NCBI GenBank assembly: GCA_022749995.1
Contig: JAKIWO010000001.1
Span: forward strand, 154,330 to 218,329
Origin: Thermoplasmata archaeon
GTDB taxonomy: Archaea > Thermoplasmatota > Thermoplasmata > Lutacidiplasmatales > UBA184
DNA: 64,000 nt
Reading direction: 5' to 3'
This document shows positions 16,470 to 51,986 of the stretch, piece by piece. Below the pieces are notes generated by a model. That model had not been told where the DNA came from. It saw only the letters and a program-made list of their open reading frames with translations, and ran no database searches. Within the stretch, counting starts at the first letter, position 1. Each line of letters opens with the position of its first letter. Both the position numbers and the translations under genes were made by a program.

Positions 16470-16499
16470 GCAACGGAGCGCCCGGTGCTGCGCCGTGAA

Positions 16500-19903: not shown

Positions 19904-19976
19904 GGAGGTCAGGAGGGACCCTTCGTCGGGGACCGGGTGCCGCTTGCGCGGCCCGGGGGAGCCAGACCGGTGGGCC

Positions 19977-21733: not shown

Positions 21734-21813
21734 GCCGAGCGCTGCACCGCAGGCGACGAGGAGGAACCCGCGTCCCGTCCAGGAGACCCGCGGCGGGGGC
21801 TCGTTGGCTGCGC

Positions 21814-23261: not shown

Positions 23262-23331
23262 GCTCAGCTCCCGCGCCGATCGAGGACACCGGGCCCAGTG
23301 GGATGGCGCTTGCGCTGCGGGGCGACGCACC

Positions 23332-24284: not shown

Positions 24285-25226
24285 CTACTTAGGGGGTGAC
24301 GGGGCGGCCGGCCCACCACCGCTCGCGGGCGGTGTCGGTCGGAGCAGGTAGAACGCGCGGCGCTCATGCTCGAGGGGAAGCACGAGAAAATCGACCGGCG
24401 CGTAGCCCAGGTCCGTGCAGGCTCGGAAGGCATCGCGCACCGCGTACCTCCAGCGCCGGGCCGACGGCAGGTCGTGCTCCCGGACCGCGCTCAGGTCGAA
24501 GGGGATCTCGAGATGGGCGAGCGGTCCGGCCGGTTCGCCGACCTCCGTGGGCACGCGCAGACCCTGGTCGTTCTCCTCGGTGCGCACGACGGAACGGGCC
24601 GACTGGTACGCGGCCAGGTCCTCGGCACCGGTAGGGACGGTTCCGGCGAGTCGGGCCTCCACTTCCGGCTCGTTCAATCCCCACCGCATCCGGAGTCGGT
24701 CGGAGTCCATCTCTTCCTCCTCCTTCCAGCCCAGACGTCCCAGGTGATGCGGGAGGTACTTCTCGCACCGAGCCCCCAGCCGGCGCAAGGAGAGCCGCGC
24801 CGCGCGGCTGCGCAACGGGTCGAAGTTCCACCGCATCGCCGGGATGCCTTGCTGGAGCGCCGCCTCCCGACGGTAGGCCATCAGCCGGTACGCGACCTGG
24901 TGGTGCTGGTACTCCGGCCGGACCGCCGTCAACAGCGCGAACCGGTACAGCTCGCTGCCGTTCCAGCCCAGCAGGTCGGCCCCCACACCGGCCAGGTAGA
25001 TGTCGGCGAAGGCGCCGACGACGAGTCCGCCGTGGTCCAGGGCGCCCCGGAGCACGCTCACATTGACGGGCACCTCCGTGCCGCCGCCCATGGCCTGCCG
25101 CTCGAGCTCCTCGGCGGCGCGCAGTTCCTCGGGCTTATCGAGCGGCCGGAACCGGAATTCCCGGACCCGTTCGAGCCCGCTGGCGCCGGCCATCGACCGC
25201 GGACCGGGGCGAAGTACTTGAGGCAC
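24285..25226 (-). CDS. GNAT-superfamily protein (COG3375-like)
   Basis: WNFDPLRSRAARLSLRRLGA and DSDRLRMRW resemble the COG3375 consensus (from memory). Confidence 0.45.
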   Translation of the reverse strand: MPQVLRPGPRSMAGASGLERVREFRFRPLDKPEELRAAEELERQAMGGGTEVPVNVSVLRGALDHGGLVVGAFADIYLAGVGADLLGWNGSELYRFALLTAVRPEYQHHQVAYRLMAYRREAALQQGIPAMRWNFDPLRSRAARLSLRRLGARCEKYLPHHLGRLGWKEEEEMDSDRLRMRWGLNEPEVEARLAGTVPTGAEDLAAYQSARSVVRTEENDQGLRVPTEVGEPAGPLAHLEIPFDLSAVREHDLPSARRWRYAVRDAFRACTDLGYAPVDFLVLPLEHERRAFYLLRPTPPASGGGPAAPSPPK

Positions 25227-33455: not shown

Positions 33456-34253
33456 CTACCGGCGGAACGCACGGGAGAGGAAGCCCGGCCAGGAAACGCC
33501 GCGGGGAACCAGGACCAGCCAGAGCGTGCAGACCACGACCCCCAACCCCAGGATCAGGAGGGCGTAGATGGGCTCGCCCAGCGCGAGCGCCTCGAAAAGC
33601 CCCCCTGCGCCCAGGGAGATGGTCACGACCCAGAGGTCGAACTCCCGGCCGCTGCGCGGCGGCGCGCCTTCGCCGGGAGAGCTCAGGAGTCCCAGGATGG
33701 CACCGCCCAATCCGAGCAGCGCAAGCCCGAGGAAGAGCGGGTCGTTCGCCGAGGTCAACGGCAGCACTGGGTTGCCGATGCCGTGCGCCCACGCTCCGAG
33801 TCCGCCGAGCTGGGCGGATTGCACGCCGAGGAAGTTGCGGGCGATCGTCGGCGGAGATCCGCCGGCCGAGGCGCGCAATCCGAGTCCCTCCCCGAGCGCC
33901 ACCACGAGGATCAAGAATCGGTTCGGCGCGCTCACCGGGGCGCCGAGCAGCGTGGCCAGCAACGCGAGCGGCACACCCAACACGGCCCCGGCCAGCACCG
34001 AGTCCCAGGGAGCCCGCAGGTTGAAGCCGGAGGTGAGGACAGCGATGCCTACCGCGCCGAAGGCGAGCGCCGGCAGGCACCACCAGCCGACCCAACGATC
34101 GGGAAGCAGTAGCCCCCCGAGCGGGGCGGCCGCGAGCAGGAAGCCGAGCAGGAAACCGGCGTCGGGGTTCGTCAGTCCGAGCCCGCCGGCGACCGGCAGG
34201 TAGAGCAACACCGGCACGGTCAGGAGCATCTCGGGAGTGGGGCGCAGCTTCAT
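33456..34253 (-). CDS. Gly/Ala/Leu-rich polytopic membrane protein (module 2)
   Basis: The ATG overlaps the DUF58 stop (ATGA). Same position relative to DUF58 as 19977..20525. Confidence 0.55.
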   Translation of the reverse strand: MKLRPTPEMLLTVPVLLYLPVAGGLGLTNPDAGFLLGFLLAAAPLGGLLLPDRWVGWWCLPALAFGAVGIAVLTSGFNLRAPWDSVLAGAVLGVPLALLATLLGAPVSAPNRFLILVVALGEGLGLRASAGGSPPTIARNFLGVQSAQLGGLGAWAHGIGNPVLPLTSANDPLFLGLALLGLGGAILGLLSSPGEGAPPRSGREFDLWVVTISLGAGGLFEALALGEPIYALLILGLGVVVCTLWLVLVPRGVSWPGFLSRAFRR

Positions 34254-35560
34254 GCGAATCCCCAGGCGCGCAGCTGCGTGTAGGTCTCGAGCACCCGGCC
34301 CGATGCCCCCCGGCGGTCGTACGGGAACACCGGGATCCCCTCGGCCCGGAGTTCCGACTGCAGCCGGGCGGCCCGGTCCTGCTCCTCGGCACGTGCCCAG
34401 GCGAGTGCCTTGGCACCGGCCGAGGGTGCGACGTCGGGGTAGAACGCGGCCTCCTGCGGCAGGAATGCGTACAGGTGGTGGCCCCGGTGCCGGAACCGGG
34501 CGTGCGCGAGATGCAGCCCGTCGAGCGACCCGCGCAGCGAGGAGAACAGCAGCACATGGGAGTTGGTGCGGAGCCGTCGGGTCAACCCCTCGAGCAGCGC
34601 CGGCAGCTCGAAGCTACCCTCCTCGCTCCGGAGGTAGGCCAGGTTCTCCGCGAGCAGCCGGAAATGCCGGGAGCCACGGGAGGGGCGCAGGAACTGTCGG
34701 AGCTGCTCGGTGCCGGTGGCGAGCCCCACCCGGTCCTCCCCGCTGCGGGCCACGACGGCGGTGACGAGCGAGGCGGCCTCGACCGCCCGGTCGAGCGCGT
34801 TGGTGCCCGGCACACCGACGAGCATCGCCGGGGTCACGTCGATCGCCAGCACGAAGTCCTGCCGGCTCTCCTGCTCGAACTCCCGTACGTACCACTGGCC
34901 GGGTCGCGAACGTCGCCAGGCGACGTGGCGCAGGTCGTCGTCGGACTGGTAGAGCCGGAGCGACCGGAACTCGCTACCAAACCCACGATGGCGGAGCGCG
35001 AGCCGGCCTTGGACGCGGGTGAACAGTGCCGGTCCGATACGGTGGGCACGACTGATCGGCGCCGGCGGAATCACCTGGACCGGTTGGCGCGTGTCGGAGA
35101 ACATCCGCTGCTCCCACGCGAGCCGGCGCGGGCTCCACAGCGTGACCGCCACCGGGCCGAGCACATGGCTGCCGCGCGCCCCCGAGCGCAGCCGGGACCG
35201 GAGCCGGCGGCGCGTGCCCGGCGTCCACCACCGGGGCGGGAGCACCGGCGCCCCCTCCCGCGCGAGCGCATCGGGCAGCAGGTCCTGGACCGAGGCGAGC
35301 ACCGGCGCCGGGCCGGAGAACAGGACCGAGGATTCGGTGAACGAGTCGGTCCCCGGCGAGAGCGCGCTCGGCCACTCCTCGCGGACCGCGGCGAAGGAGG
35401 CCGCGTCCGGCAGGGTGCGGTGGAAGAGCAGGATCTCCCCCGCCACGAGGGCAAAGGCGATGGTGCTCGCCAAGAGGAGGAGCAGCTCCAGGGTGTAGGC
35501 GCTCACGAGCAGCGCCGCGGTCGTGGCGGCGACGGCCAGATAGCCTCGGGGCGCGATCAC
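34250..35560 (-). CDS. DUF58-family protein (module 2)
   Basis: N-terminal TM pair, DDLRHVAWRRSRPGQWYVREFEQE hallmark, then FVLAIDV. Confidence 0.8.
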   Translation of the reverse strand: MIAPRGYLAVAATTAALLVSAYTLELLLLLASTIAFALVAGEILLFHRTLPDAASFAAVREEWPSALSPGTDSFTESSVLFSGPAPVLASVQDLLPDALAREGAPVLPPRWWTPGTRRRLRSRLRSGARGSHVLGPVAVTLWSPRRLAWEQRMFSDTRQPVQVIPPAPISRAHRIGPALFTRVQGRLALRHRGFGSEFRSLRLYQSDDDLRHVAWRRSRPGQWYVREFEQESRQDFVLAIDVTPAMLVGVPGTNALDRAVEAASLVTAVVARSGEDRVGLATGTEQLRQFLRPSRGSRHFRLLAENLAYLRSEEGSFELPALLEGLTRRLRTNSHVLLFSSLRGSLDGLHLAHARFRHRGHHLYAFLPQEAAFYPDVAPSAGAKALAWARAEEQDRAARLQSELRAEGIPVFPYDRRGASGRVLETYTQLRAWGFA

Positions 35561-35576
35561 GGGCCGGACGATTCCC

Positions 35577-36608
35577 CTAGCGGGGGACCTCGATCCGGTC
35601 CATCCGGTCCTTGAGGACCTCGCGCAGCAACGGCTCGAGCCCGTTGCGGCCGGTGACGAACCGCTGGGCCACGATATCCGGATGGAGCAGGATGCGGTGG
35701 TTCAGTACGTCGAACGCCGCGCTCTTGATGTCGTCGGGGGTGACGTATCCTCGGCCCGCGAGCAGCGCCGAGGCCTTGGCCGCCCGGACGAATTGAACGC
35801 CGGCCCGGGGCGAGCCGCCCATCAGGATCCGGGGGTCCTCGCGCGTGCTCCGTAGCAGGGTGACCACGTAGGAGAGCAGCTCGGGGGAGAGCGTGGTGCG
35901 CAGCGCCCGAGCGTGCAGCCGCAGCAGCGCCTCGGCCGAGACCGACGGGGTCGGCCCCTCGGGGGGTGGCTCGCCGCCGTGCCGCTCCAGCACCGCGATC
36001 TCGTCCTCCCGTCCCGGGTAGCCGAGCAGCAGCCGGAAGAGGAACCGGTCGATCTGCGCCTCGGGCAGTGGGTACGTGCCTTCCTGCTCGATCGGATTCT
36101 GGGTGGCGATCACGAGGAACGGACGGGGCAGCGGGTGGGTCACCCCGTCGACGGTCACCTGCCGCTCCTGCATTGCCTCGAGGAGCGCCGACTGCACCTT
36201 CGGCGGGGCGCGGTTGATCTCGTCGGCCAGCACGACGTTGGCGAAGACCGGTCCCGGCCGGTACTCGAAGGAGGAGTTCGCCGGGTTCAGGATGACGTTG
36301 CCCGCGATGTCGGAGGGGAGCATGTCGGGCGCGAACTGGATCCGCTTGAAGGAGAGCGAGAGCGCCGAGGCAAATCGGTGCGCGAGCATCGTCTTTGCGA
36401 TCCCGGGAACCCCCTCGAGCAGGACGTGCCCCTCGGCCAGCAGTGCGACGAGTAGCTGGCGGACGGTCGCCTGGTACCCGATCACCTCGAGACCGACGTA
36501 CTGCTGGAGGGCGGCGAGCAGCCGGGCGGCCTCGGGGTCGCCGGCCGGTCCGCTCCGGTCAGGGGCGGTGGTCGGGACGGCGGCGCTGGAGTCGGTTCCC
36601 GGTGTCAT
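35577..36608 (-). CDS. MoxR-family AAA+ ATPase (module 2)
   Basis: VLLEGVPGIAKTMLAHR Walker A, VVLADEINRAPPKVQSALLEAMQE. Confidence 0.85.
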   Translation of the reverse strand: MTPGTDSSAAVPTTAPDRSGPAGDPEAARLLAALQQYVGLEVIGYQATVRQLLVALLAEGHVLLEGVPGIAKTMLAHRFASALSLSFKRIQFAPDMLPSDIAGNVILNPANSSFEYRPGPVFANVVLADEINRAPPKVQSALLEAMQERQVTVDGVTHPLPRPFLVIATQNPIEQEGTYPLPEAQIDRFLFRLLLGYPGREDEIAVLERHGGEPPPEGPTPSVSAEALLRLHARALRTTLSPELLSYVVTLLRSTREDPRILMGGSPRAGVQFVRAAKASALLAGRGYVTPDDIKSAAFDVLNHRILLHPDIVAQRFVTGRNGLEPLLREVLKDRMDRIEVPR

Positions 36609-37120
36609 GGTGCTCTCCCTAGAAGTGTGAGCCGGCGGTCGACCTGCCCCAAGAGGGCATCGAGCCGGCGGAAGAACCAGCGGCGGGAGCTCTCGAGGCT
36701 GCGCCAGAAGTCCCAGCGCAGCCGGCTGCCGGTCTCGAGGCGCAGGGCATGGAGCTGCAGCTGGGTGAGGTCGGAGGCGAGGCGGCGCAGCTCGCGCCGC
36801 TCCGGTCGGGGTAGTCCGGCCCCTGTGGGTGTGGGGCGGTCGACCTCCTCGAGAGCGATGCCCCGGTGGCGCCGCAGGGAGGCATCGAGCCGGTCGTACG
36901 CTTCGAGCAGGATCTGCGAGTACGCCTCCTCGTGGAGCGCGACGACGGTCCGGCTCACCGGGTCCCGGTCCGGCACCGGTACGGGAGGGTCGAACCCCGT
37001 GGTCCTCGGACGGCCACGGGGGGCGAAGAGGAGCCAGAGCGCCCCGGCACTGGCCAGGCAGAGGATCGGCAGGCCCACCCGCGGATCGAAGAGCAGGCGG
37101 AGGAAGAGCGCTGGGTCCAC
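36605..37120 (-). CDS. Small N-anchored helical protein, module 2 (paralog of 21814..22221)
   Basis: One N-terminal TM and the DRLDASLRRHRG motif. Its stop overlaps the MoxR start (ATGA). Confidence 0.5.
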   Translation of the reverse strand: MDPALFLRLLFDPRVGLPILCLASAGALWLLFAPRGRPRTTGFDPPVPVPDRDPVSRTVVALHEEAYSQILLEAYDRLDASLRRHRGIALEEVDRPTPTGAGLPRPERRELRRLASDLTQLQLHALRLETGSRLRWDFWRSLESSRRWFFRRLDALLGQVDRRLTLLGRAP

Positions 37121-37127
37121 CGCCGGC

Positions 37128-37595
37128 TCACCCCACCGTTTCGGTCTCGGTCGGCGGCTCCGCGAGCGGGGAGCTGGGTTCCGTCTCCGTGCCGGGCCGG
37201 GCCGGCTCGACGTAGAGTCGCCACATCGGCGCGGCGGCGTACAGGCTCACGAGCAGCTCGAGGACGGCGCGCCCCTCGGGGGGTGGTGCCCGGTCGCCGA
37301 ACCGGAACGGCTCGTACAGCCGCCACAGCTCCTCGAAGAAGTCGAGCAGTGGCTCCATCTCGGGCTGGAAACCGTATCGGATGATCTCCTCGTGCGTCCA
37401 GCCGACCGCGAACGGCCGGTGGTAGGCGCGCTGCAGGTCCGTGATCACCTGCGGGTAGGCGAGCCGGAGCGCCTCGCCGACCTGGCCCTTGGCGAGCCTC
37501 CGCTTGGTCTCGGTGAGCACCGGCACCTCGACCGGCCGGAACTTCTCGATCACTCGGGGGCCGGTCGGCGGCACTAAAGGGGCGCGCGGCGTCAC
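37128..37595 (-). CDS. Short DUF4129-like protein (module 2)
   Basis: In-frame GTG at 37595 overlaps the upstream stop (GTGA). FFEELWRLYEPFRFGDRAPP resembles the DUF4129 C-terminal motif. Confidence 0.4.
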   Translation of the reverse strand: MTPRAPLVPPTGPRVIEKFRPVEVPVLTETKRRLAKGQVGEALRLAYPQVITDLQRAYHRPFAVGWTHEEIIRYGFQPEMEPLLDFFEELWRLYEPFRFGDRAPPPEGRAVLELLVSLYAAAPMWRLYVEPARPGTETEPSSPLAEPPTETETVG

Positions 37596-40075
37596 GGCCG
37601 CGCTCCGGGTCGCGGGCCGGGCTCGGGGCGCCGCCGCGCGGGGGCCAGCAGGAGGTAGACCAGCGCCAGCGCGAGGATGGCGACCGGGGTGAGGACAAGC
37701 AGCAGCCGCCCCGCGAGCGGTCCGCCCGGCAGGAACGCGAACGGGCTGGGACCCAGCCCGTGCGCGGCCGCCGGGGCGCAGCCGACGCCGAAACAGGCGT
37801 TGGACGGCGTGAGCAGGACGAGGTACTTCGGGAGCACGGTGTAGTAACTGAGCGCGACGTAGGAGCGGTTCGCCAGGAATCCAGGGGCGGTCGCGAAGAC
37901 CAGCGTGAGCGCGGGTGGCAGCACGTCGGTGAAGTTCGCCCACCCGTTCGCGTCGGTGGTGAGGGTTCGGTTCCCCCCGACGCTCACCGAGCCACCGGCG
38001 ATCGGCGCCCCGGTCAGCGAGTTCTCGAGCTGGACGCTCAGATTGGCCCCGTACCGCGCCGAGAGCGTGAGGACGAGGACCGTGGGAGAGGCCCACGGGT
38101 GGTACTCGGGGGCCGAAGTTCCGCCCGGCAGATAGCCGGCCGCGAGCGCCGTGATCGAGTAGTTCCCTCCGGCCAGCACGGCGTCAACGTAGCTCCCGTC
38201 GGTCCCGGTGGTGTACCGGGTGGTGAACGGGTTGGCCGGGTCGAGCCCCACCATGACGCCAGTGGCGCCGGCGATGCCCCGTCCCGTGGCGGTGTCGATG
38301 ACGTCAATGGTCATCGGCCCCGGATCCTCGAGGCTGAGGTTCGCGTAGGCGTAGCCTGTGTACGGTACGCTGACGTTCGCGGTCGCGGAGGAGTGGTTGG
38401 CCAGCGAGCCTGTCAGGTGGATATTGCCCGTCGGGACGGTCAGGTTGCTCACGTTGAGGTAGCCGAGCGAGTTCGAGCGGCCGAGGACCAAGGTGGAGTT
38501 CTCGCTCACGGTGACGTTGTAGAGCGACGACGGCACTCCGCCCGGGCCGAGGCCGTAGGTGCGCACCCGGAGCGCGGGCAGCGGGTCGAGTGCGAGGGAC
38601 ACGCGGTTCGTGATGTTCGGGGCGATGACCACCGAGGACTTGCCCGGATGGAACCCGGGAGGCGAGCTCGTCAGGTTCAGCTGGTCGGGCGACGGTACGC
38701 TCACGTTGGCGTACCCGGCGGCATTGGTGACCACGGTCCGCACGATGCACTGCCCTGAGAGCTTGACGCTCGCGTTGGCAATTCCCGCGCCCGTGAGCCG
38801 GTCGATGAGGTGGAGATCTAGGGCGGTGCCGTTGATGGCGCAGGGAGGTGGCGGCGGGCCACCGAGCCCAGTGTAGAGGTCAGGGAAGCAGTTGGTGTTC
38901 GGTGCTGTGATCGGCTCGAGGACCGAGGCGTTCGTCGGGGGCGCGAGCAACGAGGGGCTGCCGCCGACGACGTTGAGCCCGGTGCAGCCCGGATACTGGG
39001 CCCACGTGGAGGGAGCGTCGAAGCGCGGTCCGGGGTTGTTGGAGAGGTCGAGCGCCGTCCAGCGCCCGGCAACTGGGTCGAACGCGAAGGTGTCGCCATA
39101 GGCCTCGGGTACGCCTCCGGACCAGGCGAACCCTCCGAACACCAGATCGAGGGCGTCCTCCCCGTCCCAGGCGTAGGTCGCGCTGGCGCGGGGGCTAGGG
39201 ACCTGTCCAGCCTGCGGAAGCACCGACCAGCTCCCGGGCTGACCGGAAAAACTCCAGAGGGCGCTCGAGCACCGGATGGCGCAACCGCCGAATAGGTCGA
39301 AGCGGGACTCCTTGGTGTCGTAGATCATGCCACTTCCCATCATGGGCGGTGGGGCGGCGGGAAGGGCGAGCTGGGTCCAGACGAACGTGGTGAGATTGAG
39401 CTGCCAGGTGTCGTTCCAGAAGACCGTCGCCGAGGAGTTGCCGACGGCGGTGTGGGGGCTCCATCCCCCCTGGAGCAGGGCGACTCCACCGGAGTCGTTG
39501 ACGGCAAAGGCGGCGCTCTCCCGGGCGGGCGGCGCGTGCGCGCGGCTGACGTTCTCCCACGTCTGGTTCCCGAACCAGTACAGCCAGGTCTCGTTGCTGG
39601 TGCGCTGGCTCGAGAGGTTCGTGAGCCCGCCGAAGAGCACCGCGAATCCACCGGCAGGCACGGTAGCGAAACTGAAGTTGGCGCGAGCGGAAGGGCTCGG
39701 ATTGTAGAATTCCCACGTGAACTCTCCCGTCGTGGAGTTGTAGTTGGAGGTGGCGTTGGTCAGTCCGCCGCTGCCCTCCCCTCCGAACAGGGTGATGTTC
39801 CAGCCAGGGTCGTACGCGACCATCCCGGCGCCTTCTCCGAACACGTGCGATGTGTCGTCGCCGGGACCGTAGAGGATGAATGCCTCTCCCCAGCCCAACA
39901 GCGGCAAACTGGCCGGGGGCGCGAGTCGCACCTGCGCTGCGGCCGTCGTTCCCGCGATCGGGGCGCCCACGCTCGCCCTGGGAACGGGAGCACTGGGGGC
40001 GCTCGGGAGGAGGAATCCCACCACCACGAGGAGTGCAAGGAGACCCGGAACGGCTCGGGCCGGCCGGGGCGACAT
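37592..40075 (-). CDS. Large secreted Kelch-repeat plus Ig/CarboxypepD_reg-like surface protein with C-terminal TM anchor
   Basis: Signal MSPRPARAVPGLLALLVVVGFLL (ATG 40075; alternative GTG 40147). Repeated FGG...W Kelch-like units, sequon-rich beta-sandwich repeats, C-terminal LLLVLTPVAILALALVYLLL. Confidence 0.6.
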   Translation of the reverse strand: MSPRPARAVPGLLALLVVVGFLLPSAPSAPVPRASVGAPIAGTTAAAQVRLAPPASLPLLGWGEAFILYGPGDDTSHVFGEGAGMVAYDPGWNITLFGGEGSGGLTNATSNYNSTTGEFTWEFYNPSPSARANFSFATVPAGGFAVLFGGLTNLSSQRTSNETWLYWFGNQTWENVSRAHAPPARESAAFAVNDSGGVALLQGGWSPHTAVGNSSATVFWNDTWQLNLTTFVWTQLALPAAPPPMMGSGMIYDTKESRFDLFGGCAIRCSSALWSFSGQPGSWSVLPQAGQVPSPRASATYAWDGEDALDLVFGGFAWSGGVPEAYGDTFAFDPVAGRWTALDLSNNPGPRFDAPSTWAQYPGCTGLNVVGGSPSLLAPPTNASVLEPITAPNTNCFPDLYTGLGGPPPPPCAINGTALDLHLIDRLTGAGIANASVKLSGQCIVRTVVTNAAGYANVSVPSPDQLNLTSSPPGFHPGKSSVVIAPNITNRVSLALDPLPALRVRTYGLGPGGVPSSLYNVTVSENSTLVLGRSNSLGYLNVSNLTVPTGNIHLTGSLANHSSATANVSVPYTGYAYANLSLEDPGPMTIDVIDTATGRGIAGATGVMVGLDPANPFTTRYTTGTDGSYVDAVLAGGNYSITALAAGYLPGGTSAPEYHPWASPTVLVLTLSARYGANLSVQLENSLTGAPIAGGSVSVGGNRTLTTDANGWANFTDVLPPALTLVFATAPGFLANRSYVALSYYTVLPKYLVLLTPSNACFGVGCAPAAAHGLGPSPFAFLPGGPLAGRLLLVLTPVAILALALVYLLLAPARRRPEPGPRPGARP

Positions 40076-40915
40076 GGGCGACGGCGAAAGCCGTGCCCGA
40101 GATAACGGCGCCGACAAGCGCGGCGGCGTGAGGAGGAACTCGCCCACCGACCTTGTTCCGCGTGGAACCGTGCTGGTGTTCTTGGGGGACTCCCCTCAGC
40201 CTAACATGTCGCGATGGTATGTATGTCAAAGCGCTAGTTGTAGTGTGTCAGGACATGTGGCCGGTCGACGTGTCAAGAGATTTTCCCCTCGGAAGGAGGA
40301 GAGGCGCTTCACCGGAATGTACTATCGTTCGCACTGCTATGGCCCAGCGAGGGACCGGAGAGGTGAGTGACTACTCCTTCGAACAAGGAAGTCCTGGCCG
40401 ACCTCCGCGATGCTGCAGAGATTCTTCGGACACTCGCGTCGAAACCCGATCGACGCTCCAGGCTTCGGGAGGGGGAATATCGACACTCCAAATTCGGCTC
40501 ACCCTAATCGAGCTGCGACGGGACCCCCCTGCGCTGATGCATCCCGCTAAGACCTGCGGGTTTTCCAAGACGATCACTTTGGCCAGCGGGTTCGGTTATC
40601 TCGATCGGGCCACGCGGTGCCCGAGCACGTCCTCGGGAAGCGGCGGAAGGTCCGGGTCCTCGAGTACGACAGGGCAACCGCGTTCAACGCGCTCTAGGGC
40701 CGCAAGCAGCGCTGCTGGGTCCACCTCCTCCGACACGCGCGTGGGGGCTCGAGCGGTGGGAGAGGCCGAGCGATGCTACGGACTGGCGGGGACTGAGGGT
40801 GCTCGAGAAGATCGCACGGGGAGTGCTGGCCACCGCTCGCCTCCTGGCGGGGACGGTCTCAGCACTCACTGTTTGCGGGGAGACTCGCACACTAAGAAAA
40901 TTGGGGGGTCCGCTG

Positions 40916-41125
40916 CTACGTCGTGTCCTCGCTATCTTGCTCTAGCCCTCGCTCAATGTAGACGAAAACCTGCATAGAAAGCGAACGGCGTTGGCGCTCG
41001 GCACGCGCCCTAAGTTCGCGATACTTAGATTTCGGCACGTAGGTACTGACCGGGACTAGCGTCTCGGGACGGAGGCTGCTTCGTCTCGCCATTGAATCGG
41101 GCCGATCTCGGCGTCCATTGCCCAT
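40916..41125 (-). CDS. Ribbon-helix-helix (CopG-like) protein, orphan
   Basis: VSTYVPKSKYRELRARAERQRRSLSMQVFVYIERGL fits a beta-strand plus two helices RHH pattern. No partner toxin ORF was recognised. Confidence 0.45.
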   Translation of the reverse strand: MGNGRRDRPDSMARRSSLRPETLVPVSTYVPKSKYRELRARAERQRRSLSMQVFVYIERGLEQDSEDTT

Positions 41126-41160
41126 GGCACCCGGTGCCTCAGGCGGCGCCTACTCCACCG

Positions 41161-41889
41161 TCATAGTGGTCGGCAAACGGTGATATAAGCATTCCACCGG
41201 ACGCGGTTGTGAGAATACATCCCCCGCTGGGAAAGAGTCCCCCCATCATCGAGGGTCGCCGAGGGAACGAGGGTGACCTTGTGGGCCTTCGCCCACTCTC
41301 TCACCTCAGGGGTCCAGTGGGCGTTGAGCCCGTCCCGGATGAGGTACACCCGCTCGTCCGGCGGATACTTCGAGCGCTGGTAATTCGCGAACCGAAGCCA
41401 GATCCGCCCGCCCTTGTGCTCCTCCTGCTTCACGCTCAGCGTCTTGTGGAAGACGTTCAAACAGGCGTACTCGTAGCGCGTCCCTCTGTCCTGCTTGTAC
41501 GTCGCGGGGATGCGCCCCGGCAGCCCCTTCGGGAACCACCCCTTGCCCCCGTGCGGCTTCAGCGAGATCGGACCGATCTCGTCCATGCTGAAGACGATCG
41601 GGGGGTTGTGCCGCTGCACCGTGAGGCGGTCGATCCGCCTCCGCCGCTCGTCGAACCTGGGGTCTTGCTATCGGTTCCCAGGAGACCCCCTCGGGCCGTC
41701 CGCGTAGGTCCGGCCCGGGGCGACCGACTTAGGGCTGATGACTCCACCCCCGAGGCTTCGGCATCTCAGGGAGGATCTCCTCGAGGAGCCGAACGACGAT
41801 CTCGAGCTCGTGGCGGCGAACCAGGTCGTACGCGCGATAGTCGGTGCGACGGTCGGCGGGCATCTCGAGGAGAGATTCTGGTCATTTAG
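41161..41889 (-). pseudogene. IS630-family (DDE_3) transposase remnant
   Basis: QDPRFDERRRRIDRL...IVFSMDEIGPISLKPHGGKGW...VYLIRDGLNAHWTPEVREW matches the IS630 core. An in-frame TAG at 41668-41670, upstream frame changes and an aberrant C-terminus disrupt it. Confidence 0.55.
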
Positions 41890-42147
41890 ACCCGACCCCG
41901 CTCGAGTGGAAGCGGCCCACGTCGAGAACGAGTTCAGGGTCCGGATTTATGGGACGCAGCCACCGGACGCGTGATTGCGCGAGAGGGAGCTACCGCGCCG
42001 GGTCTCTCAGCCAGAAGAGCCCCTGCGGGTCGGCGACGAGTTTACTCGCTGGGCCGAGGGGCTGGGTCGGACTACGTCGGGACGTGAGTTAGGAATTGGT
42101 TGGACCCTCCCGCTCTCACGGGAGGGTCGGTGGCGGTTGAGCTCGAC

Positions 42148-42882
42148 TTATGGCGGTATGGTCACGTCAATGGTGTTCGTCGCTTGGTGGCTGTGGGTGT
42201 CGATTGCAGTCTCGCCCACGCTGAAGCTCCCCGTCCCCCCGTAGCTGTATGCAATCGGCATGCCGTTCTCCACATGGTTCCCTGGGTCCCCCATCGCAAA
42301 CTGATAGCTGATGGACCCCACAAATGACGTACCAGTCCACGTCGAGTCGTACAGGCTGACACCATACTGGATCGCGAAGATGTTGCACGCCACGACGAAG
42401 ACCAAGCAGCCGATGATGAAGTTCGCACAGGCACCCGAACCGCACTCGATAGCCAGCGTGCAGGTGTTATCGTTGCATGCGTTTCCGACTACGAGATTGA
42501 TCGTGGTGTACGAGCAGCCCGAACCATTGCATGCCGTGAGAGTGTAGTTTGCCGATGCCGTGATGGTGTCGGAGAGTAGGTGCGTCCCCGAACTCGCTCC
42601 ATCGGTTCCTGCCAAGCTAAAGGATGTCGCACCCGAGGCGGAACCCGAGAGTGAGAATGACCAACCAGGACTGCTACTGCGCGGCCCGAATGCTGTAGCT
42701 GTGATCTTCAGGTTCGTCGGCGACGTCAGTGTCCTTGCATGTCCATTCTGACTGCTTGGCGCTTGGACTAGCGCTGCCCCCGTCCAGGCCACCAGCGCCG
42801 CGGCCAAGAGACTGACTGCGGCCACCATCCAAAGTGTTCGGCGTTTTGAGCTCAGACGCACGGATCGCCTGTTGGCTTCCAT
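42148..42882 (-). CDS. Secreted/anchored Cys-rich orphan protein
   Basis: Signal anchor LWMVAAVSLLAAALVAW and 8 Cys within a 52-residue stretch (TACNGSGC...VVACN). No family recognised. Confidence 0.45.
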   Translation of the reverse strand: MEANRRSVRLSSKRRTLWMVAAVSLLAAALVAWTGAALVQAPSSQNGHARTLTSPTNLKITATAFGPRSSSPGWSFSLSGSASGATSFSLAGTDGASSGTHLLSDTITASANYTLTACNGSGCSYTTINLVVGNACNDNTCTLAIECGSGACANFIIGCLVFVVACNIFAIQYGVSLYDSTWTGTSFVGSISYQFAMGDPGNHVENGMPIAYSYGGTGSFSVGETAIDTHSHQATNTIDVTIPP

Positions 42883-43078
42883 AAGGGGGGTGAGGAACTT
42901 CTAGGCTTAATACTGTGCTACGATATATTACGATGTACGGTAATGTATGTCATGGGCTCCTGTCGAAGAGCGTCAGTCAGAGCGGTCAGGCCCGAGAGCG
43001 AGCGCCTCGGAACTTAGATAAGGTGCGACACCTTAGCACGTACTGGCGTAGCAGGCCTATCACGCAAGAAACAGAACT

Positions 43079-43393
43079 ATGCGTGCAAGCTTCCTCGACC
43101 GACTGAGAGAAAACCGACGTCGGATTGATTTCATGGGCCCGAGCGACCCTTGGGACGGGCGTTCCTTTCATCGACTTCGCCGAGCAGTATCGCGCATTGC
43201 GCCCCCGTGGGATCTGGCCATGATCACCATGATTGCCCTGAGCTTGTACGTAGCAGCCCTAGCCGGCGGCTACTTGGTGACGATTTCTGAGACCTCAATT
43301 GAGGGGATGTTCGGGGGATTCCTATTGGTCGGAGTCGCTGCGGCAATTTCGTCGAGACTGGCCAACGTTCGCCCGATTATTCGGCTCGGGTAG
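43079..43393 (+). CDS. Small two-TM hypothetical protein
   Basis: ORF with two hydrophobic helices. No homology recognised. Confidence 0.25.
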   Translation: MRASFLDRLRENRRRIDFMGPSDPWDGRSFHRLRRAVSRIAPPWDLAMITMIALSLYVAALAGGYLVTISETSIEGMFGGFLLVGVAAAISSRLANVRPIIRLG

Positions 43394-43480
43394 ACTATTC
43401 ATGTGGCCTGGGTTTTCTCGAGTCTGCGGCGCAAACGCCTGATTCAAAACAGAGGAAGCGCGTCCTCGTCTACGTTCTAG

Positions 43481-44743
43481 TGCCTAGACGAGGTTCCGTC
43501 CCAGAGCGGTATCGGGGTCTACCTCGTCTCCAACCAGGGTGCCGTCTGGAGGTGCATCTGTCCGGACTACCTGGCCCACAACCTTCGTTGCAAGCACATT
43601 GTTGCGGTCGGGTTCTTGCTCAAAGGGGTCACGCGGCAACAGGCGGATGAGGAGGAAGCCAGGCGACCTCGTCCAACCTATCCACAAAACTGGCCCACCT
43701 ACAATGCCGCTCAGCGGGCGGAGGCTGTGGATTTCGGCCCCGTCCTCCAAGACCTGGTAGCCGACCTGGAGGACCCCTGCCCGCTAAAGACGAACGGTAG
43801 GCCGCGACTTCCGTACCGCGACCTAGTCTACTGCGCAGTCGAGAGGGAGTTCACGCGCCTTTCTCTTCGGAAGGCCCAAGGGACCTATGCTGGCTCTCAA
43901 CGGGCTGGGCGCATTTCGTGCGTCCCCTCCGACAAGATGCCTTCGATACTGCTTCGGCGCCCGGAGACCACCGAGGTTCTCAACGAGCTGATCTCGAAGT
44001 CAGCGGCGGCGCTCAAGTCCATCGAGACCACTTTTGCGGTAGACTCAGCGGGGTTCCGCACGACTTCCTTTGGTGACTACTGCCGGGAGAAGTACGGGGC
44101 ACGCGTCCACAACATCTGGAAGAAACTCCACATCATCGTTGGGACCCAGACCGGTATCATTCCGGCCGTTGTGGTGACGGACGGCCACGCGGCCGGCTGC
44201 CGCCAGTTTCCCGCTCTGATCAAGGCGGTCGAGGCGGCGGGCTTCACTGTCGCCGAAGTCTATGCGGACAAGGGCTACCTCTCCGGGGAGAACTTCACGG
44301 TCGTTGCCAAGGCCGGTGGTGTGCCCTACATCATGTTTAAGGAGAACAGCCGAGGACGCGCGAAGCACCGGAACGACCACGCCCCCTGATGGAAGAAGAT
44401 GTGGCACTTGCTCCAGTCCAACCCGACTGAATTCTTGGCCCAGTACTACAAGCGAGAGCACGTCGAGTCGACCTTCGCCGCGATCAAAAAAAAGCTCGGC
44501 GAGACGCTTAGCTCGCGAGACCCCAACGCACAGGTCAACGAACTCCTATGCAAGGTGCTCGTCCACAACATCCAGATCCTGATCCAGGCGTCATTCGAGC
44601 GGGGGATTCCGCTTCCGGCACACGGATCGCCGGACGATGAGCCGGTGGCCCCCCAGGGTCTCCCGCCAGTCCAAGCGACGCGAGTCAGCCAGATGAACCG
44701 AGACGCCACGCACTCTGCGAACTGGCCGTCGGAGAACAACTGA
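43481..44743 (+). pseudogene. SWIM zinc-finger + DDE (IS4/IS5-like) transposase interrupted by an in-frame TGA and lacking a canonical start
   Basis: The frame is open from 43481 and encodes WRCICPDYLAHNLRCKH (SWIM CxCxnCxH). TGA at 44387-44389 separates ...RNDHAP from WKKMWHLL...YYKREHVESTFAAIKKKLG in the same frame. Confidence 0.6.
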
Positions 44744-45318
44744 TGTTGATTGAAGATGGGGGCGATCGTAGGCGGACCTCCCGCAGCGGCCCGGCACCAG
44801 CACAGGGGTGGGGCTTGAGAAGAGCGTAGGCGGGCCGCATCGGACCTCGGGGGTGATGCTCACTTCGTGCCGGGGGATGCGGTGTCCCGCTTCGATTCCT
44901 TAAATGCACGTGTGTTGAGAAGACGGCGGCATTAGAGGCCAGAGAGGGACCTCGGGTTGCTGAGCCCCTACTTCGTCGCGGATCCAACTCCGATCTTCTC
45001 AATGAGCGTGCGCGCCCTTTCTGTCGCCGCGTTAAGTCTCGCCATCACCTCTCGCAGTGAGTTCTGTTTCTCGCGGCTAGACGCCGGGCAAAGAGAAAGA
45101 GGGAGAATGATTGGCTCGGGGCCTGTCGCTCCCCCCACCGAAGAGTGCTGTCTCTGTCCTGACTCTCTAAGGCGTTCCCAGCTCGACCCTGAACCCCCCC
45201 AAACCCTGGCTGCGGGGGCTGATCGGTTCAGTTCCGCCTCACATCGGCTACAGGAGGGACTCTATCTTGCCTGAGGGCCAGATAGATGTATCAACGCGCG
45301 CGGCGGTTGTGACGTGTC

Positions 45319-46476
45319 GTGTCGCGAAGGATCGTAAGACCGTTTGTCGTCTCGGCTCTGGCTGTGATAGTGCTACTGGTCGTTACTGAGGGTATGCTCG
45401 GTGCCTCATTCTACTCGAATGCGGAAAGTGGTCAAGCTCGATTCTCCACCCTGTCGGGCGGCTGTAACATGACGAACCTCATCGTACCGATCACAACTTA
45501 CACCCCGTCGATTAGCGAAATCGCGGCCTCAGCAGCATCCAACAGCTCAACCGACTATACCTGGGGCACGAGGGGTTACGCACCTGGATACGACCTCAAT
45601 TGGACGGGTGTCGGTCTAAACGGCAACGTCAACACAGCCACTTGCACCTACGCCTACTACAACTACTCCGTAGCCTACACGATGCAGAACAAGTCGACGA
45701 GCGACACAGGGCAGCTCTCGATATTCGTAAGTCAGAACACGGGCGCTGTGCTCGGGAACCTCACGATGTGGGGGGTGGATGGAAATCACGCCTCTAGCGG
45801 CAAGTGGACGGGTTACACGACATCATCTTTCGGGAGGTACACTCCAACCGGGGAGGACGATGCTTGGAACGGGCTGGGCGTGTCGGCGAATTCCGGTCAT
45901 TGCGGTTCGCTTGGGATCATAATCGGAATTTGCGGTATCAGCGTTTGGGGGGGCCTCTCCCAGGCCGCCGGCGGGGGAAGCACAATCGTCCAATCCGGGA
46001 TGGATGCCTACGCCACATGCCAGTATCTGTTGTTCGTGGGGTGGAGCTGTCCGACGACCTACACTCCCTGGTGGGAAACCTATCCTAATCAGGCGATTTA
46101 CTGCACGTTTCAGTCACTGAACAAGGTAAACCAGTTCGTCTCCGAAGTTTACTACGTTCAAGGGACGGGGAACTACTGGATTGTAATGGCGGATTTGACC
46201 AGTGGCAATTTTTGCGCCGGATACTACCATGGCCCCGCGTTGTCCCTACCTTGGGCGCAATATCAGGTCGAAGCAATCCCGAACGGGATTGGCGGCGTGC
46301 TCCAAACGCCCAACTTCAACTTCCAAAACGAGTTCGTCTGGGCCTCAGGCTATCCAAACAACCTCGTTCCTTGGGTCGCCGGGCAGCAGACCGTCGCGAA
46401 CACCGCTCTCGGATCCATGTACTATTCGACTCCGAACTGTCATATGGGCCCCTTCAGTTGCTTCTCGGTCACGTAG
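45319..46476 (+). CDS. Secreted protein with putative G1 (eqolisin-like) glutamic peptidase domain
   Basis: Signal anchor. SVWGGLSQAAGGGSTIVQSG (candidate catalytic Gln), YTPWWETYP, and WAQYQVEAIP (candidate catalytic Glu) follow the G1 peptidase pattern from memory. Confidence 0.4.
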   Translation: MSRRIVRPFVVSALAVIVLLVVTEGMLGASFYSNAESGQARFSTLSGGCNMTNLIVPITTYTPSISEIAASAASNSSTDYTWGTRGYAPGYDLNWTGVGLNGNVNTATCTYAYYNYSVAYTMQNKSTSDTGQLSIFVSQNTGAVLGNLTMWGVDGNHASSGKWTGYTTSSFGRYTPTGEDDAWNGLGVSANSGHCGSLGIIIGICGISVWGGLSQAAGGGSTIVQSGMDAYATCQYLLFVGWSCPTTYTPWWETYPNQAIYCTFQSLNKVNQFVSEVYYVQGTGNYWIVMADLTSGNFCAGYYHGPALSLPWAQYQVEAIPNGIGGVLQTPNFNFQNEFVWASGYPNNLVPWVAGQQTVANTALGSMYYSTPNCHMGPFSCFSVT

Positions 46477-46488
46477 TCTCGTGCGAAA

Positions 46489-47085
46489 ATGGGCGGCCTC
46501 AACCTCGACGAGCAATCTCATCAGCCGATCAGCCGCAGCGGGCGGTCGTTTCGCTCGAGTGGAGGAACGAAGTGGGCGATTGTCACTGCTTCGGCGGTTG
46601 TCGTGTTCGCGATAGTCTTCGTCGTCGTTCTGAGTCCGTTGGCGACCCAGCCTTCAACGGGGCCCTCGAGCTTTGCGCCGGTGTGGGGGCCAGTTCAGGT
46701 CACCCCCGGCAACGTCGGCTGCCCCGCGTCGCAAGGCGGACTGTGCTACTCGGTTGGAGTGACTACCCTCTACCGATCGGTGCAGGCCTCAAGCCTGGCA
46801 TTCGCAGTTTCTAACTCTACTACGCTTCAGTACCCGATGCCGAACAACGTTCCTATGGGGGCGAATGCGACGGTCTCAATCATTGGAGGTTCGTCGGCCG
46901 TCGCGACGTGGGATTGGTCGACAGGGTCTTGGAGCAGTGGCATAAGCTACGTCCTGCCTTACAACACCAATGTGACGCTCGTCCTCGACACGGGTCTGAC
47001 ATCGAACTCGACGTTGCTTGGCAACGTGTTCTGCGTGGAGCTAGCAACGAACGGCGGCGGCGTTCTGGGGTTTTACTTCCATTGA
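46489..47085 (+). CDS. Membrane-anchored extracellular orphan protein, 12 nt downstream of the peptidase-like gene
   Basis: TM WAIVTASAVVVFAIVFVVVL followed by a beta-rich, sequon-bearing ectodomain. Confidence 0.4.
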   Translation: MGGLNLDEQSHQPISRSGRSFRSSGGTKWAIVTASAVVVFAIVFVVVLSPLATQPSTGPSSFAPVWGPVQVTPGNVGCPASQGGLCYSVGVTTLYRSVQASSLAFAVSNSTTLQYPMPNNVPMGANATVSIIGGSSAVATWDWSTGSWSSGISYVLPYNTNVTLVLDTGLTSNSTLLGNVFCVELATNGGGVLGFYFH

Positions 47086-47401
47086 CTGGGTTACGGCGGG
47101 CTAGCTATCGAGTGCCCCTCTATCCGCTCAAGAGCGGAGGGAGGCCGGGTCCTGAATCAACGACGGACCTAGAATTCTGAACTCGGAACTCTTTCAGCAT
47201 CATGGGGGAGGGCCTGTAGTCCACTTCCCCGATACAGAGGCTACCGTGCATCCTAGAAAGCATGTGGTCACCTAGTCGCCGTCCCTCTGGAAATCGAACC
47301 GAGTGGGCTGGCTTCAGTACGGAACGATGCCATGACTAGGGCGAACGGGCCGGAAATCCAATGGGTTGAGGGATTCCCTCAGAAGTGCCTCCCAGTCTCA
47401 G

Positions 47402-47459
47402 CCGCACAGAAACCCCCCCGACCGCACAGAAACTTGCGCACGGAAACTGGTTTTCGTGC
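47402..47459 (+). repeat. Three direct copies of C/GCGCAC(A/G)GAAAC, the last forming a hairpin, upstream of rpoK
   Basis: ccgcacagaaac at 47402-47413 and 47422-47433, gcgcacggaaac at 47436-47447, with an inverted partner gttttcgtgc at 47450-47459. Confidence 0.6.
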
Positions 47460-47553
47460 AGAGCCAAAGCCTTCGCAAAGCGTAAATAGCGCTCCCTGGC
47501 TGGCGCCGGCCTTGTCGGCGGCACTTCCCGTGCTCGCCCCTAGGGATCTCACG

Positions 47554-47781
47554 GTGAGTGGCGGGGCCTCGGGCACGCACGGGCAACCAGCGGAGCACTC
47601 TCGCTTTGAACGCGCCCGCATCCTCGGGGCCCGGGCGTTGCAGATCTCCCTCGGCGCGCCGATGCTGATCGATATCCCGACCGGACTCTACGACCCGGTC
47701 GAGGTCGCGGAGAAGGAGTACGAGGCCAACGTGCTCCCGATCACCGTGCGACGCGGGCCGGCCCGCGGCGCGGTCACCTAG
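47554..47781 (+). CDS. rpoK: DNA-directed RNA polymerase subunit K (Rpo6/omega-like)
   Basis: SRFERARILGARALQISLGAPMLI...DPVEVAEKEYEANVLPITVRR. In-frame GTG at 47554 is preferred over the track ATG at 47332. Confidence 0.7.
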   Translation: MSGGASGTHGQPAEHSRFERARILGARALQISLGAPMLIDIPTGLYDPVEVAEKEYEANVLPITVRRGPARGAVT

Positions 47782-47785
47782 CCCT

Positions 47786-48571
47786 TCAGATCTGCGCCTG
47801 TTCGAGGGCGCTCGCGCAGCTGCAGCCCCTGGGTGCGTCGAGCTTGGGCAGCAATTTTTCCAGTACGCGGATCATCCGGTGCTGGTTCTCCTTCATCGTG
47901 CGGACGACGTCGGCCGCCTCCACGGGCTTAGGTTGCCATACGTCAAAGTCGGTCACCGTCGCCAGACAGCTGTAGCAGATTGCCATCTCCCGGGCCAACG
48001 TGACCTCGGGGACCAGCGTCATCCCGATGATGTCCGCGAAGCTGCGGAAGTAGCGCGACTCCGCGCGGGTGGAGAACCGGGGGCCCTCGACGCAGACGTA
48101 GGTGCCTCCGGGCCGGAACAGTGAGCCCGCCTCGGCGCCGGCTGCGGTGGCCCAGGCGGTGAGCTCGGGGCAGAACGGGTCGGCGGTCGATACGTGGTAG
48201 ACGCGACCGCCATCGAAGAAGGTGGTCGGCCGCGCCTTCGTCAAGTCCACGAACTGATCCGGCAGCACGAAGGTTCCGGGCGGTAGTTCCTCCCGGAGCG
48301 AGCCGACACTGCTGACGGTGAGGATCCGCTCTGCTCCCAGCTGCGCGAGCGCGGCGATGTTCGCTCGGTAATTGAGACGGTGCGGCGGGATGACGTGCCC
48401 CACCCCGTGCCGGGCCAAGAACAGCACTCGCAGCGACCCGATCCGACGCTCCTCGATCGGACCAGAGGGAGCTCCCCACGCGGTGGAGACCCGATGGGAG
48501 GCGATCGGTGCGCCCCCCCATGCGCTGAGACCCGAACCGCCGATCAGCGCGACGGTCCTCGGCGCGCTCAC
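47786..48571 (-). CDS. mtnP: S-methyl-5-prime-thioadenosine phosphorylase / purine nucleoside phosphorylase
   Basis: VALIGGSGLS N-terminus, RHGVGHVIPPHRLNYRANI, IGMTLVPEVTLAREM. Confidence 0.8.
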   Translation of the reverse strand: MSAPRTVALIGGSGLSAWGGAPIASHRVSTAWGAPSGPIEERRIGSLRVLFLARHGVGHVIPPHRLNYRANIAALAQLGAERILTVSSVGSLREELPPGTFVLPDQFVDLTKARPTTFFDGGRVYHVSTADPFCPELTAWATAAGAEAGSLFRPGGTYVCVEGPRFSTRAESRYFRSFADIIGMTLVPEVTLAREMAICYSCLATVTDFDVWQPKPVEAADVVRTMKENQHRMIRVLEKLLPKLDAPRGCSCASALEQAQI

Positions 48572-51861: not shown

Positions 51862-51986
51862 GTGCTGACAGCTTTCCGCGGTTCCCGTAGGCTCGCGCAC
51901 TTCAGTACCGCGCGGAACGCCAGTGGGCTTAACTTCCGGGTTCGGAATGGGACCGGGTGTTTCCCCACCGCTTTGGCCGTCAGCGG
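51862..51986 (-). rRNA. rrf: 5S ribosomal RNA, not linked to 16S/23S in this window
   Basis: The reverse complement contains CCCATTCCGAACCCGGAAGTTAAGCC. Helix I pairs GCTGACGGC with GCTGTCAGC. Confidence 0.85.

Follow-up and report, generated by a model that had tools for sequence, protein, structure and literature searches.

MoxR–DUF58 operons, often with DUF4129, are among the commonest uncharacterised gene clusters in bacteria and archaea, and to our knowledge most of them have no known client. The client of MxaR/MxaS is methanol dehydrogenase, a periplasmic beta-propeller. Maturation chaperones that pair a MoxR ATPase with a VWA protein include NorQ/NorD (PMC9976466) and RavA/ViaA (PMC3893208). 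Among the larger neighbourhoods, Makarova et al. 2015 predicted an archaeal secretion or membrane-remodelling complex from DUF4350, MoxR, Ig-vWA, membrane and Ig S-layer-like proteins, in which arCOG01314/DUF4350 is a membrane-anchored protein with an extracellular flavodoxin-like domain (PMC5898192). In the PFNA cluster of Bifidobacterium (pkb2-fn3-MoxR-duf58-tgm), an FN3 surface protein is encoded alongside MoxR, DUF58 and a membrane transglutaminase (PMC8430577). MoxR-vWA-transglutaminase (YebA) operons were proposed by Zhang and Aravind to be membrane-proximal degradation systems (PMC3495828), and ternary conflict systems made of MoxR, vWA and beta-propeller proteins were described by Kaur et al. 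2020 (PMC7159879). Here we analyse a window of 64,000 nucleotides (nt) of a Thermoplasmata archaeon of the order Lutacidiplasmatales (assembly GCA_022749995.1, contig JAKIWO010000001.1, positions 154,330 to 218,329 of the forward strand; all coordinates below are those of the window), in which six co-directional open reading frames (ORFs) on the minus strand fill positions 33456–40147. They join a five-gene core of the MoxR–DUF58 class to the gene of a Kelch surface glycoprotein, a pairing that we found to recur across Thermoplasmata genomes.

Organization of the six-gene unit

From the first gene to the sixth, the unit encodes a Kelch surface glycoprotein (37592–40147; 851 amino acids (aa) from a GTG, or 827 aa from an ATG at 40075, the likelier start because a signal-peptide-like segment begins there), a soluble DUF4129 protein (37128–37595; 155 aa), a small protein with one N-terminal transmembrane (TM) helix and a basic helical cytoplasmic domain (36605–37120; 171 aa), a MoxR AAA+ ATPase with AAA_3 and AAA_lid_2 domains (35577–36608; 343 aa), a DUF58 protein (34250–35560; 436 aa) and a polytopic membrane protein outside any described family (33456–34253; 265 aa). 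We refer to this unit as module 2 and to a comparison set at about 18722–24264 as module 1, and name their ATPases MoxR2 and MoxR1 accordingly. The successive junctions of module 2, read directly, are a GTGA overlap, a 7-nt gap (GCCGGCG), an ATGA overlap, a 16-nt gap and an ATGA overlap. A preliminary description of this DNA had reported six co-directional genes with these junctions and this domain content, and the ORFs, the sequence and Pfam bear it out on each point.

The same description had considered a terminator before 37595 that would separate the Kelch gene from the rest; what lies there is the 4-nt overlap, without a terminator-like site or T-run. The terminator scan found no terminator-like hairpin inside module 2. 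The sigma-70 promoter scan likewise gave nothing within the module. Sigma-70 promoter and intrinsic terminator scans being uninformative for an archaeon, scans for T-runs and AT-runs were used instead, and they located the sole minus-strand T5 run of the module in the middle of the Kelch gene. A TAAATA box, placed about 36 nt ahead of the Na+/H+ exchanger gene that comes next, indicates where the unit ends. The module-2 proteins received no specific names from NCBIfam. PADLOC matched no defence-system model to the six proteins, and with zero matches the idea of a defence system was dropped.

The only named match outside the Thermoplasmata in a search with DUF58 was a Streptomyces DUF58, encoded in the cluster membrane protein-DUF4129-DUF4350-MoxR-DUF58 (L067). 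Because this relative sits in a widespread, functionally uncharacterised cluster, we regard module 2 as an archaeal form of that cluster. Both have the order DUF4129-X-MoxR-DUF58, an AAA_3-type MoxR, a DUF58 protein of the same length and architecture, and a polytopic protein. They differ in X, which is the 171-aa anchored helical protein in module 2 and DUF4350 in Streptomyces, and in the membrane protein, which belongs to no described family and follows DUF58 in module 2 but leads the cluster in Streptomyces. Module 2 also has the Kelch surface protein attached, unlike the Streptomyces cluster.

The other described systems resemble module 2 in part. With the arCOG01314 complex it shares MoxR (COG0714), an Ig-like-plus-vWA protein, small and polytopic membrane proteins, and large Ig-domain surface proteins; it differs in that DUF4350 is absent, the surface protein carries a Kelch propeller and is not one of the listed S-layer arCOGs, and we place the vWA protein in the cytoplasm. 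As in PFNA, a co-directional gene for a large beta-sandwich surface glycoprotein lies upstream of MoxR, DUF58 and then a polytopic protein. However, MoxR and DUF58 are the only families shared with PFNA: module 2 has no Ser/Thr kinase, FN3 or transglutaminase, Kelch and CarboxypepD_reg replace FN3, two extra small genes precede MoxR, and the host is an archaeon. Like NorQ/NorD, RavA/ViaA and CbbQ/CbbO, module 2 encodes a MoxR protein and a VWA adaptor beside a client, here a candidate one, and like the mxa system its candidate client is an extracytoplasmic beta-propeller; unlike in these chaperone systems, the candidate is no known metalloenzyme, the adaptor is predicted to be membrane-tethered, and three further subunits are present. 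The polytopic protein lacks the transglutaminase-like peptidase domain of the MoxR-vWA-YebA operons. The ternary conflict systems share with module 2 the combination of MoxR, vWA and beta-propeller, together with a weak bpMoxR match, but here the MoxR is ordinary, the propeller is extracellular and of Kelch type, and no PADLOC model matched. We found no description in the literature of a Kelch-propeller surface protein as the fixed partner of such a MoxR core.

Conservation of the unit and its linkage to the Kelch gene

The DUF58 search returned about 80 ortholog clusters at 35–82% identity, all from Thermoplasmata. To survey the loci we took one genome per species and used tblastn and ORF calling, which gave 45 loci. 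The long-contig neighbourhoods showed the six genes in identical order between wholly different flanks, and the core of DUF4129, a ~170-aa gene, MoxR, DUF58 and a 270–360-aa membrane gene was present in every locus with room for it. The recurrence of this gene order in 45 loci of other genomes with unrelated flanks puts the arrangement far beyond chance adjacency, as had been argued from the window itself.

The Kelch gene adjoined the core in 35 of the 38 loci that were informative on both sides, lying upstream and co-directional in 32 and convergent in three. The convergent loci had a Kelch-type gene encoding 1245–1308 aa just downstream of the core, and Pfam applied to one of them (L046) found Kelch and CarboxypepD_reg. 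A search with the Kelch protein gave a clear orthologous group followed by about 300 remoter Thermoplasmata homologs. Four of these distant homologs (28–34% identity) were checked, and all four were convergent to the same five-gene core. A neighbour-joining tree was built from 169 sequences, without bootstrap support; in it the MoxR proteins of two of these convergent-type loci nested within the clade of module-2 MoxR. The pairing persists down to 36% identity in DUF58 and 28% in Kelch.

An old pairing that has outlived a change of side and strand is strong evidence for a functional link between the Kelch protein and the core, and, since the pairing is kept when the genes converge, co-transcription is not required. 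Within the core, the DUF58 stop overlaps the membrane-gene start in 42/42 loci. The DUF4129 and small genes overlap in 26 of 41 loci and are at most 20 nt apart in 38 of 41. A 4-nt overlap joins the Kelch gene to the next gene in 11 of 30 loci. We conclude that these comparisons support the six genes as a conserved functional unit of Thermoplasmata archaea. For module 2, the Kelch linkage in the surveyed loci and in the distant homologs also supports the arrangement of a “MoxR machine plus cargo” put forward in the preliminary description.

The Kelch surface glycoprotein

Pfam recognized Kelch and CarboxypepD_reg in the first gene. In the 827-aa form, a signal or anchor helix is followed by the propeller (residues ~60–390), four CarboxypepD_reg-like beta-sandwich domains (~414–757), a juxtamembrane PFxFLP motif, a C-terminal TM helix (788–810) and a basic tail. 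The AlphaFold model (pLDDT 84) showed a six-bladed propeller, the four beta-sandwich domains, a low-confidence linker and the TM helix. Using Foldseek, the propeller was matched to the six-bladed Kelch domains of ESP, LZTR1 and KLHDC2 at a target TM-score of ~0.8. For the whole model (m3098a9b26bee), the best matches were to outer-arm dynein heavy chains, in their N-terminal Kelch-plus-Ig regions. Among prokaryotic proteins, MoxR is regarded as the closest to the dynein AAA domains (PMC3495828), and the likeness of the Kelch model to dynein probably reflects just a shared domain combination.

The window protein carries 30 N-x-S/T sequons, against 6.7 ± 2.3 in shuffled sequences. The propeller is its best-conserved part (column identity 0.6–0.68). 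Invariant cysteines occupy positions able to form disulfide pairs, and the propeller orthologs have neither an invariant His/Tyr set nor a conserved metal-ligand set. Given paired-type invariant cysteines and no invariant His or Tyr, the propeller resembles a binding module and not an enzyme of the galactose-oxidase type; the latter candidate was dropped for lack of invariant His or Tyr ligands. Orthologs share the motif P-F-x-[FYL]-L-[PN]-x-G-G just outside the C-terminal TM helix, which is followed by a basic cluster (37592–37700, residues ~770–827). The motif looks like a sorting or docking signal, and no such juxtamembrane motif was present in the PKD proteins of the window.

The core proteins and their topology

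MoxR2 matched AAA_3 (PF07726) at 216.1 bits (cutoff 27) and AAA_lid_2 at 68 bits; its match to PDB 2R44 scored 268 bits. The motifs GxPGxAKT, LADEINR, ATxNP, DR and SPR (Walker A, Walker B, sensor 1, arginine and sensor 2) are kept in 44 orthologs, a conservation that suggests an active ATPase. The bpMoxR model matched weakly, at 32.7 bits, and since AAA_3 scored 216 bits we consider MoxR2 to be of the ordinary type. In one long-read metagenome-assembled genome (MAG) the MoxR of the module is split (L006/L018, 8951–9983) and only a 149-aa lid fragment was called, which may be either a sequencing-error frameshift or a pseudogene.

The DUF58 protein matched PF01882 at 65.4 bits (cutoff 23.4; E 5e-18). 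Its AlphaFold model (pLDDT 85) consists of a TM helical hairpin (4–48), a beta-sandwich (56–163), a disordered linker and a VWA domain (197–436). Foldseek found the beta-sandwich to be like complement MG (macroglobulin) domains, and it matched the VWA domain, at a probability of 1.0, to TFIIH p44, ANTXR (the anthrax-toxin receptor), the MDN1/Rea1 MIDAS domain and NorD. A PDB sequence search with the DUF58 profile gave zero matches.

The window 155-aa protein matched DUF4129 (PF13559) below threshold (E 0.0014; 19 bits, cutoff 24.8). Its orthologs matched the family in 34 of 41 cases (E <= 0.1; best 3.5e-9), and by these matches the protein probably belongs to DUF4129 at family level. It has no TM segment and a composition of cytoplasmic type, and its invariant residues are E23, P25, D53, Y94, P96, R98 and Y119. 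The 171-aa protein has a single N-terminal hydrophobic helix by hydropathy and an isoelectric point of 11.1. A gene of ~170 aa was found between DUF4129 and MoxR in every locus with room; no Pfam or NCBIfam family, DUF4350 included, matched the window protein or its ~38–39 orthologs.

The 265-aa polytopic protein has about 7–8 hydrophobic segments, and neither it nor its ~40–41 orthologs matched any family, transglutaminase-like peptidases included. Only Q148 and P165 are invariant, and therefore no catalytic-looking set of conserved residues, such as Cys/His/Asp, is present. An archaeosortase identity, suggested by the motif, helix and basic tail of the Kelch protein, was dropped because a conserved Cys/Arg/His set is missing and the tail is long. 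A profile search of a large protein database with the polytopic-protein alignment returned just three close relatives, the word index of that search being poor on hydrophobic sequence.

The composition of the six proteins bears on which side of the membrane they occupy. Orthologs of the Kelch protein have 3.28 sequons per 100 aa, against 0.77 when shuffled; Asn makes up 5% of their residues, and each charge class about 5%. All core proteins have 0.05–0.13 sequons per 100 aa. For MoxR, the DUF4129 protein, the small protein's tail and both soluble parts of DUF58, the values are 0.05–0.12 sequons per 100 residues (0.12 per 100 aa for the DUF4129 protein), 0.5–2% Asn and 9–19% of each charge class. 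Because exported proteins of this lineage are sequon-rich and the core is sequon-poor, the whole core would face the cytoplasm and only the Kelch protein would lie outside. For DUF58, it is composition together with the predicted helical hairpin that suggests a cytoplasmic placement. MoxR has no export signal, and the Kelch protein has a signal-like N-terminus of its own.

Relation between the two modules

Module 1 also lies on the minus strand. Pfam identified two DUF4129 membrane proteins (23332–24264 and 22221–23261), a DUF58 protein (20522–21733) and MoxR1 (18722–19903). Reading-frame analysis and the orthologous loci L055 and L056 added a small membrane-anchored helical protein (21814–22224) and a polytopic membrane protein of ~182 aa (19977–20525), whose genes had been masked by longer overlapping ORFs in this high-GC sequence. 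Related contigs carry the module-1 set with a single DUF4129 gene. With the two newly found genes, the parts list that the preliminary description saw in both modules is confirmed, and so is the difference in order: MoxR comes before DUF58 in module 2 and after it in module 1, the position of MoxR being the main difference between them.

That description had also taken one module for a second copy of the other. Alignments and the tree gave a different result, as the paralog pairs were not each other's closest relatives. MoxR1 and MoxR2 share 46% identity, the baseline of the family, and with MoxR2 as the query MoxR1 (289 bits) would rank about 33rd among the representatives of 50%-identity clusters. 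In the MoxR tree the module-2 clade was monophyletic and MoxR1 and MoxR2 were not sisters; the nearest neighbours of MoxR1 were other database clusters, and the common ancestor of MoxR1 and MoxR2 spans the whole tree. The DUF58 pair could be aligned over 76 residues only, at 30% identity and with no phmmer match, and the Streptomyces DUF58 scores better against module-2 DUF58 than the module-1 protein does. Neither the DUF4129 pair nor the polytopic pair was alignable, and their profile comparisons were not significant, the DUF4129 comparison aligning the correct region. The small-protein pair gave a weak profile match (probability 44%, E 2.4e-4). As far as these comparisons go, the two modules are not supported as copies of each other.

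Nor does each module appear to be wired to its own class of surface protein, as had been suggested. In the two related contigs with downstream context (L055 and L056), MoxR1 is directly followed by genes for a 2-hydroxyacid dehydrogenase and an aminotransferase, which in the window lie at 12535–13434 and 11368–12501, beyond three PKD genes; an upstream GNAT-like gene and a downstream tRNA synthetase gene are also syntenic with related contigs. Because synteny resumes beyond them, the PKD genes (14308–18623) represent a lineage-specific insertion and not conserved cargo of module 1. The proximity of the two modules was not a conserved feature either: in the related contigs checked, up to 10 kb of flank was fetched on either side of each module, and the other module did not occur in it.

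Measured against L055 synteny, both the three PKD genes (14308–18623, minus strand) and a Big_5 Ig-like gene (7403–10060, plus strand) are insertions, and surface-protein genes seem to have been gained at the locus in this lineage. The third PKD protein (14308–15500, minus strand) has a TM segment and then a long cytoplasmic C-terminal region that looks winged-helix-like by eye, where Pfam found no such domain; it may be a membrane-bound regulator. A 313-aa cytoplasmic protein is encoded immediately upstream of module 1, at 24285–25226 (minus strand). Its gene occupies the same place in six related contigs and may belong to the module; the L055 ortholog gave a weak match to GNAT acetyltransferases.

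Genomic setting

The G+C content of the window is about 71%. Its proteins are not acidic, and a haloarchaeal origin was dropped for that reason. The module-2 DUF58 protein was also found in assembly GCA_022750475.1. The close homologs are all labelled Thermoplasmata archaeon; among the related genomes are Candidatus Lutacidiplasma silvani and Lutacidiplasmatales MAGs. Lutacidiplasmatales are an acidic-soil order with ~69% G+C and without a cultured member (PMC9287336); the paper describing them does not mention MoxR or Kelch proteins.

Over 40150–48000, immediately upstream of the Kelch gene, G+C drops from about 0.70 to 0.59–0.64; this is an island rich in insertion sequences that contains transposase fragments of DDE_3 (41161–41619, minus strand) and DDE_Tnp_1 (43616–44389, plus strand). 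Elsewhere in the window, a solitary 5S rRNA gene lies at 51863–51984 (minus strand), unlinked to other rRNA genes inside the window, and Rfam detected an intron-bearing tRNA gene at 58312–58417 (plus strand) that ARAGORN missed.

Possible functions of the Kelch-linked machine

Our tentative proposal is that a membrane-tethered cytoplasmic MoxR/VWA machine has the Kelch protein as its dedicated client or partner. From gene content, gene order, conservation, predicted folds and the inside or outside placement suggested by composition, we infer a physical contact, a client relationship and the nature of an ATP-driven step. The five core genes would form a membrane-bound machine facing the cytoplasm. 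MoxR2 would assemble as a hexamer, as expected from other MoxR proteins, and DUF58 would act as a VWA adaptor, tethered by its hairpin and translationally coupled to the polytopic protein. The Kelch protein would be the only extracellular part: it would span the membrane once, be heavily N-glycosylated and hold its six-bladed propeller on a stalk formed by four Ig-like domains. By analogy with other MoxR/VWA pairs, the target would be recruited by the VWA protein, and the force would come from the ATPase. Since everything except the Kelch client would be cytoplasmic, contact would be possible only at the membrane anchor, at or in the membrane through the juxtamembrane motif, the TM helix and the basic tail. 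The ATP-driven step might be the membrane integration, assembly, display or removal of the Kelch protein.

Several observations weigh against this proposal. Three of the 38 informative loci lack a full Kelch gene: one has a 324-aa CarboxypepD_reg remnant, another a 1376-aa unannotated convergent gene, and the third an rve-type transposase (insertion-sequence integrase) gene about 1 kb downstream of the core. The Kelch gene lies 44–177 nt from the next gene in 19 of 30 loci, a looser spacing than within the core, and from this spacing and the absent or degenerate genes it follows that the core can persist without a Kelch gene. Module 1, a core of sister type, has no conserved surface-protein partner, so that cores of this class need none in general. 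The MIDAS columns of DUF58 read D(28/29)-V-[S16 T10]-P-[A12 P6 S4 G3], an incomplete DxSxS in which the second serine is not conserved, and metal-dependent capture of a ligand by DUF58 is therefore uncertain. Makarova et al. called archaeal Ig-vWA proteins likely secreted (PMC5898192), and all organisms with module 2 are uncultivated MAGs.

An unlikely alternative is that the unit is a receptor module, in which the Kelch protein is the sensor: its propeller would bind a ligand outside the cell, for example a glycan or the surface of a neighbouring cell, and a signal through the TM helix would lead DUF58 and MoxR to remodel a cytoplasmic target. The build of the protein is receptor-like, with a propeller on an Ig-like stalk, a single TM helix and a short tail, its propeller is the best-conserved part and is devoid of the invariant His/Tyr of galactose-oxidase-type enzymes, and the PFNA cluster has been read as a sensing system (PMC8430577). 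However, Pfam and NCBIfam recognized no conserved output domain (kinase, DNA-binding domain or nucleotide cyclase) in the unit, and its flanking genes differ in every genome. MoxR/VWA pairs of known function, moreover, are maturation factors and not signal transducers (PMC9976466, PMC3893208).

It is quite unlikely that module 2 is a secretion or membrane-remodelling apparatus with DUF58 outside the cell and the Kelch protein as a structural surface-layer component that the complex exports or anchors. Makarova et al. predicted such a complex from MoxR, Ig-vWA, 2–5-TM proteins and Ig-domain S-layer-like proteins (PMC5898192), and all these classes are present in module 2. Yet neither module 2 nor its orthologs encode the defining DUF4350/arCOG01314 protein, and the soluble domains of DUF58 are of cytoplasmic type and almost free of sequons in a lineage whose exported proteins are dense in them. 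MoxR shows no export signal, and the signal-like N-terminus of the Kelch protein would suffice for Sec.

We regard as very doubtful the idea of an integrin-like, ATP-powered adhesion or display device of wall-less archaea, in which the AAA+ motor would switch the propeller receptor from the inside out through the TM helix. If true, the very widespread MoxR-DUF58-DUF4129 class would for the first time have a defined client and mode of action.

A membrane-proximal degradation or extraction system like the MoxR-vWA-YebA operons, clearing damaged Kelch or other membrane proteins, is highly improbable. DUF4129 is typically the C-terminal part of transglutaminase-like membrane proteins encoded beside MoxR and DUF58. 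The unfolding of substrates by MoxR for a peptidase was proposed by Zhang and Aravind (PMC3495828), but no transglutaminase-like or other peptidase domain occurs in the six proteins or their orthologs, and the polytopic protein has no conserved Cys/His/Asp set. That the adjacency of Kelch and MoxR genes is inherited gene order within one clade, with no functional link, is strongly disfavoured and hardly credible: although all loci come from one archaeal class and three of them lack the Kelch gene, the flanks differ in every sampled genome, the pairing is kept to 36% DUF58 and 28% Kelch identity and survives the move of the Kelch gene to the other side and strand, and that gene overlaps its neighbour by 4 nt in 11/30 loci.

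Significance

Two tempting inferences about this locus are corrected by our results: the two modules are not duplicates, and the PKD genes are not the cargo of module 1. In module 2, one lineage of the MoxR–DUF58 class is locked to a single surface glycoprotein across deep divergence and rearrangement, which gives this class a concrete candidate client. The proposal of the Kelch protein as that client also comes with a testable topology, in which all components would be cytoplasmic except the candidate client, and contact between the machine and the glycoprotein would be confined to the membrane anchor.

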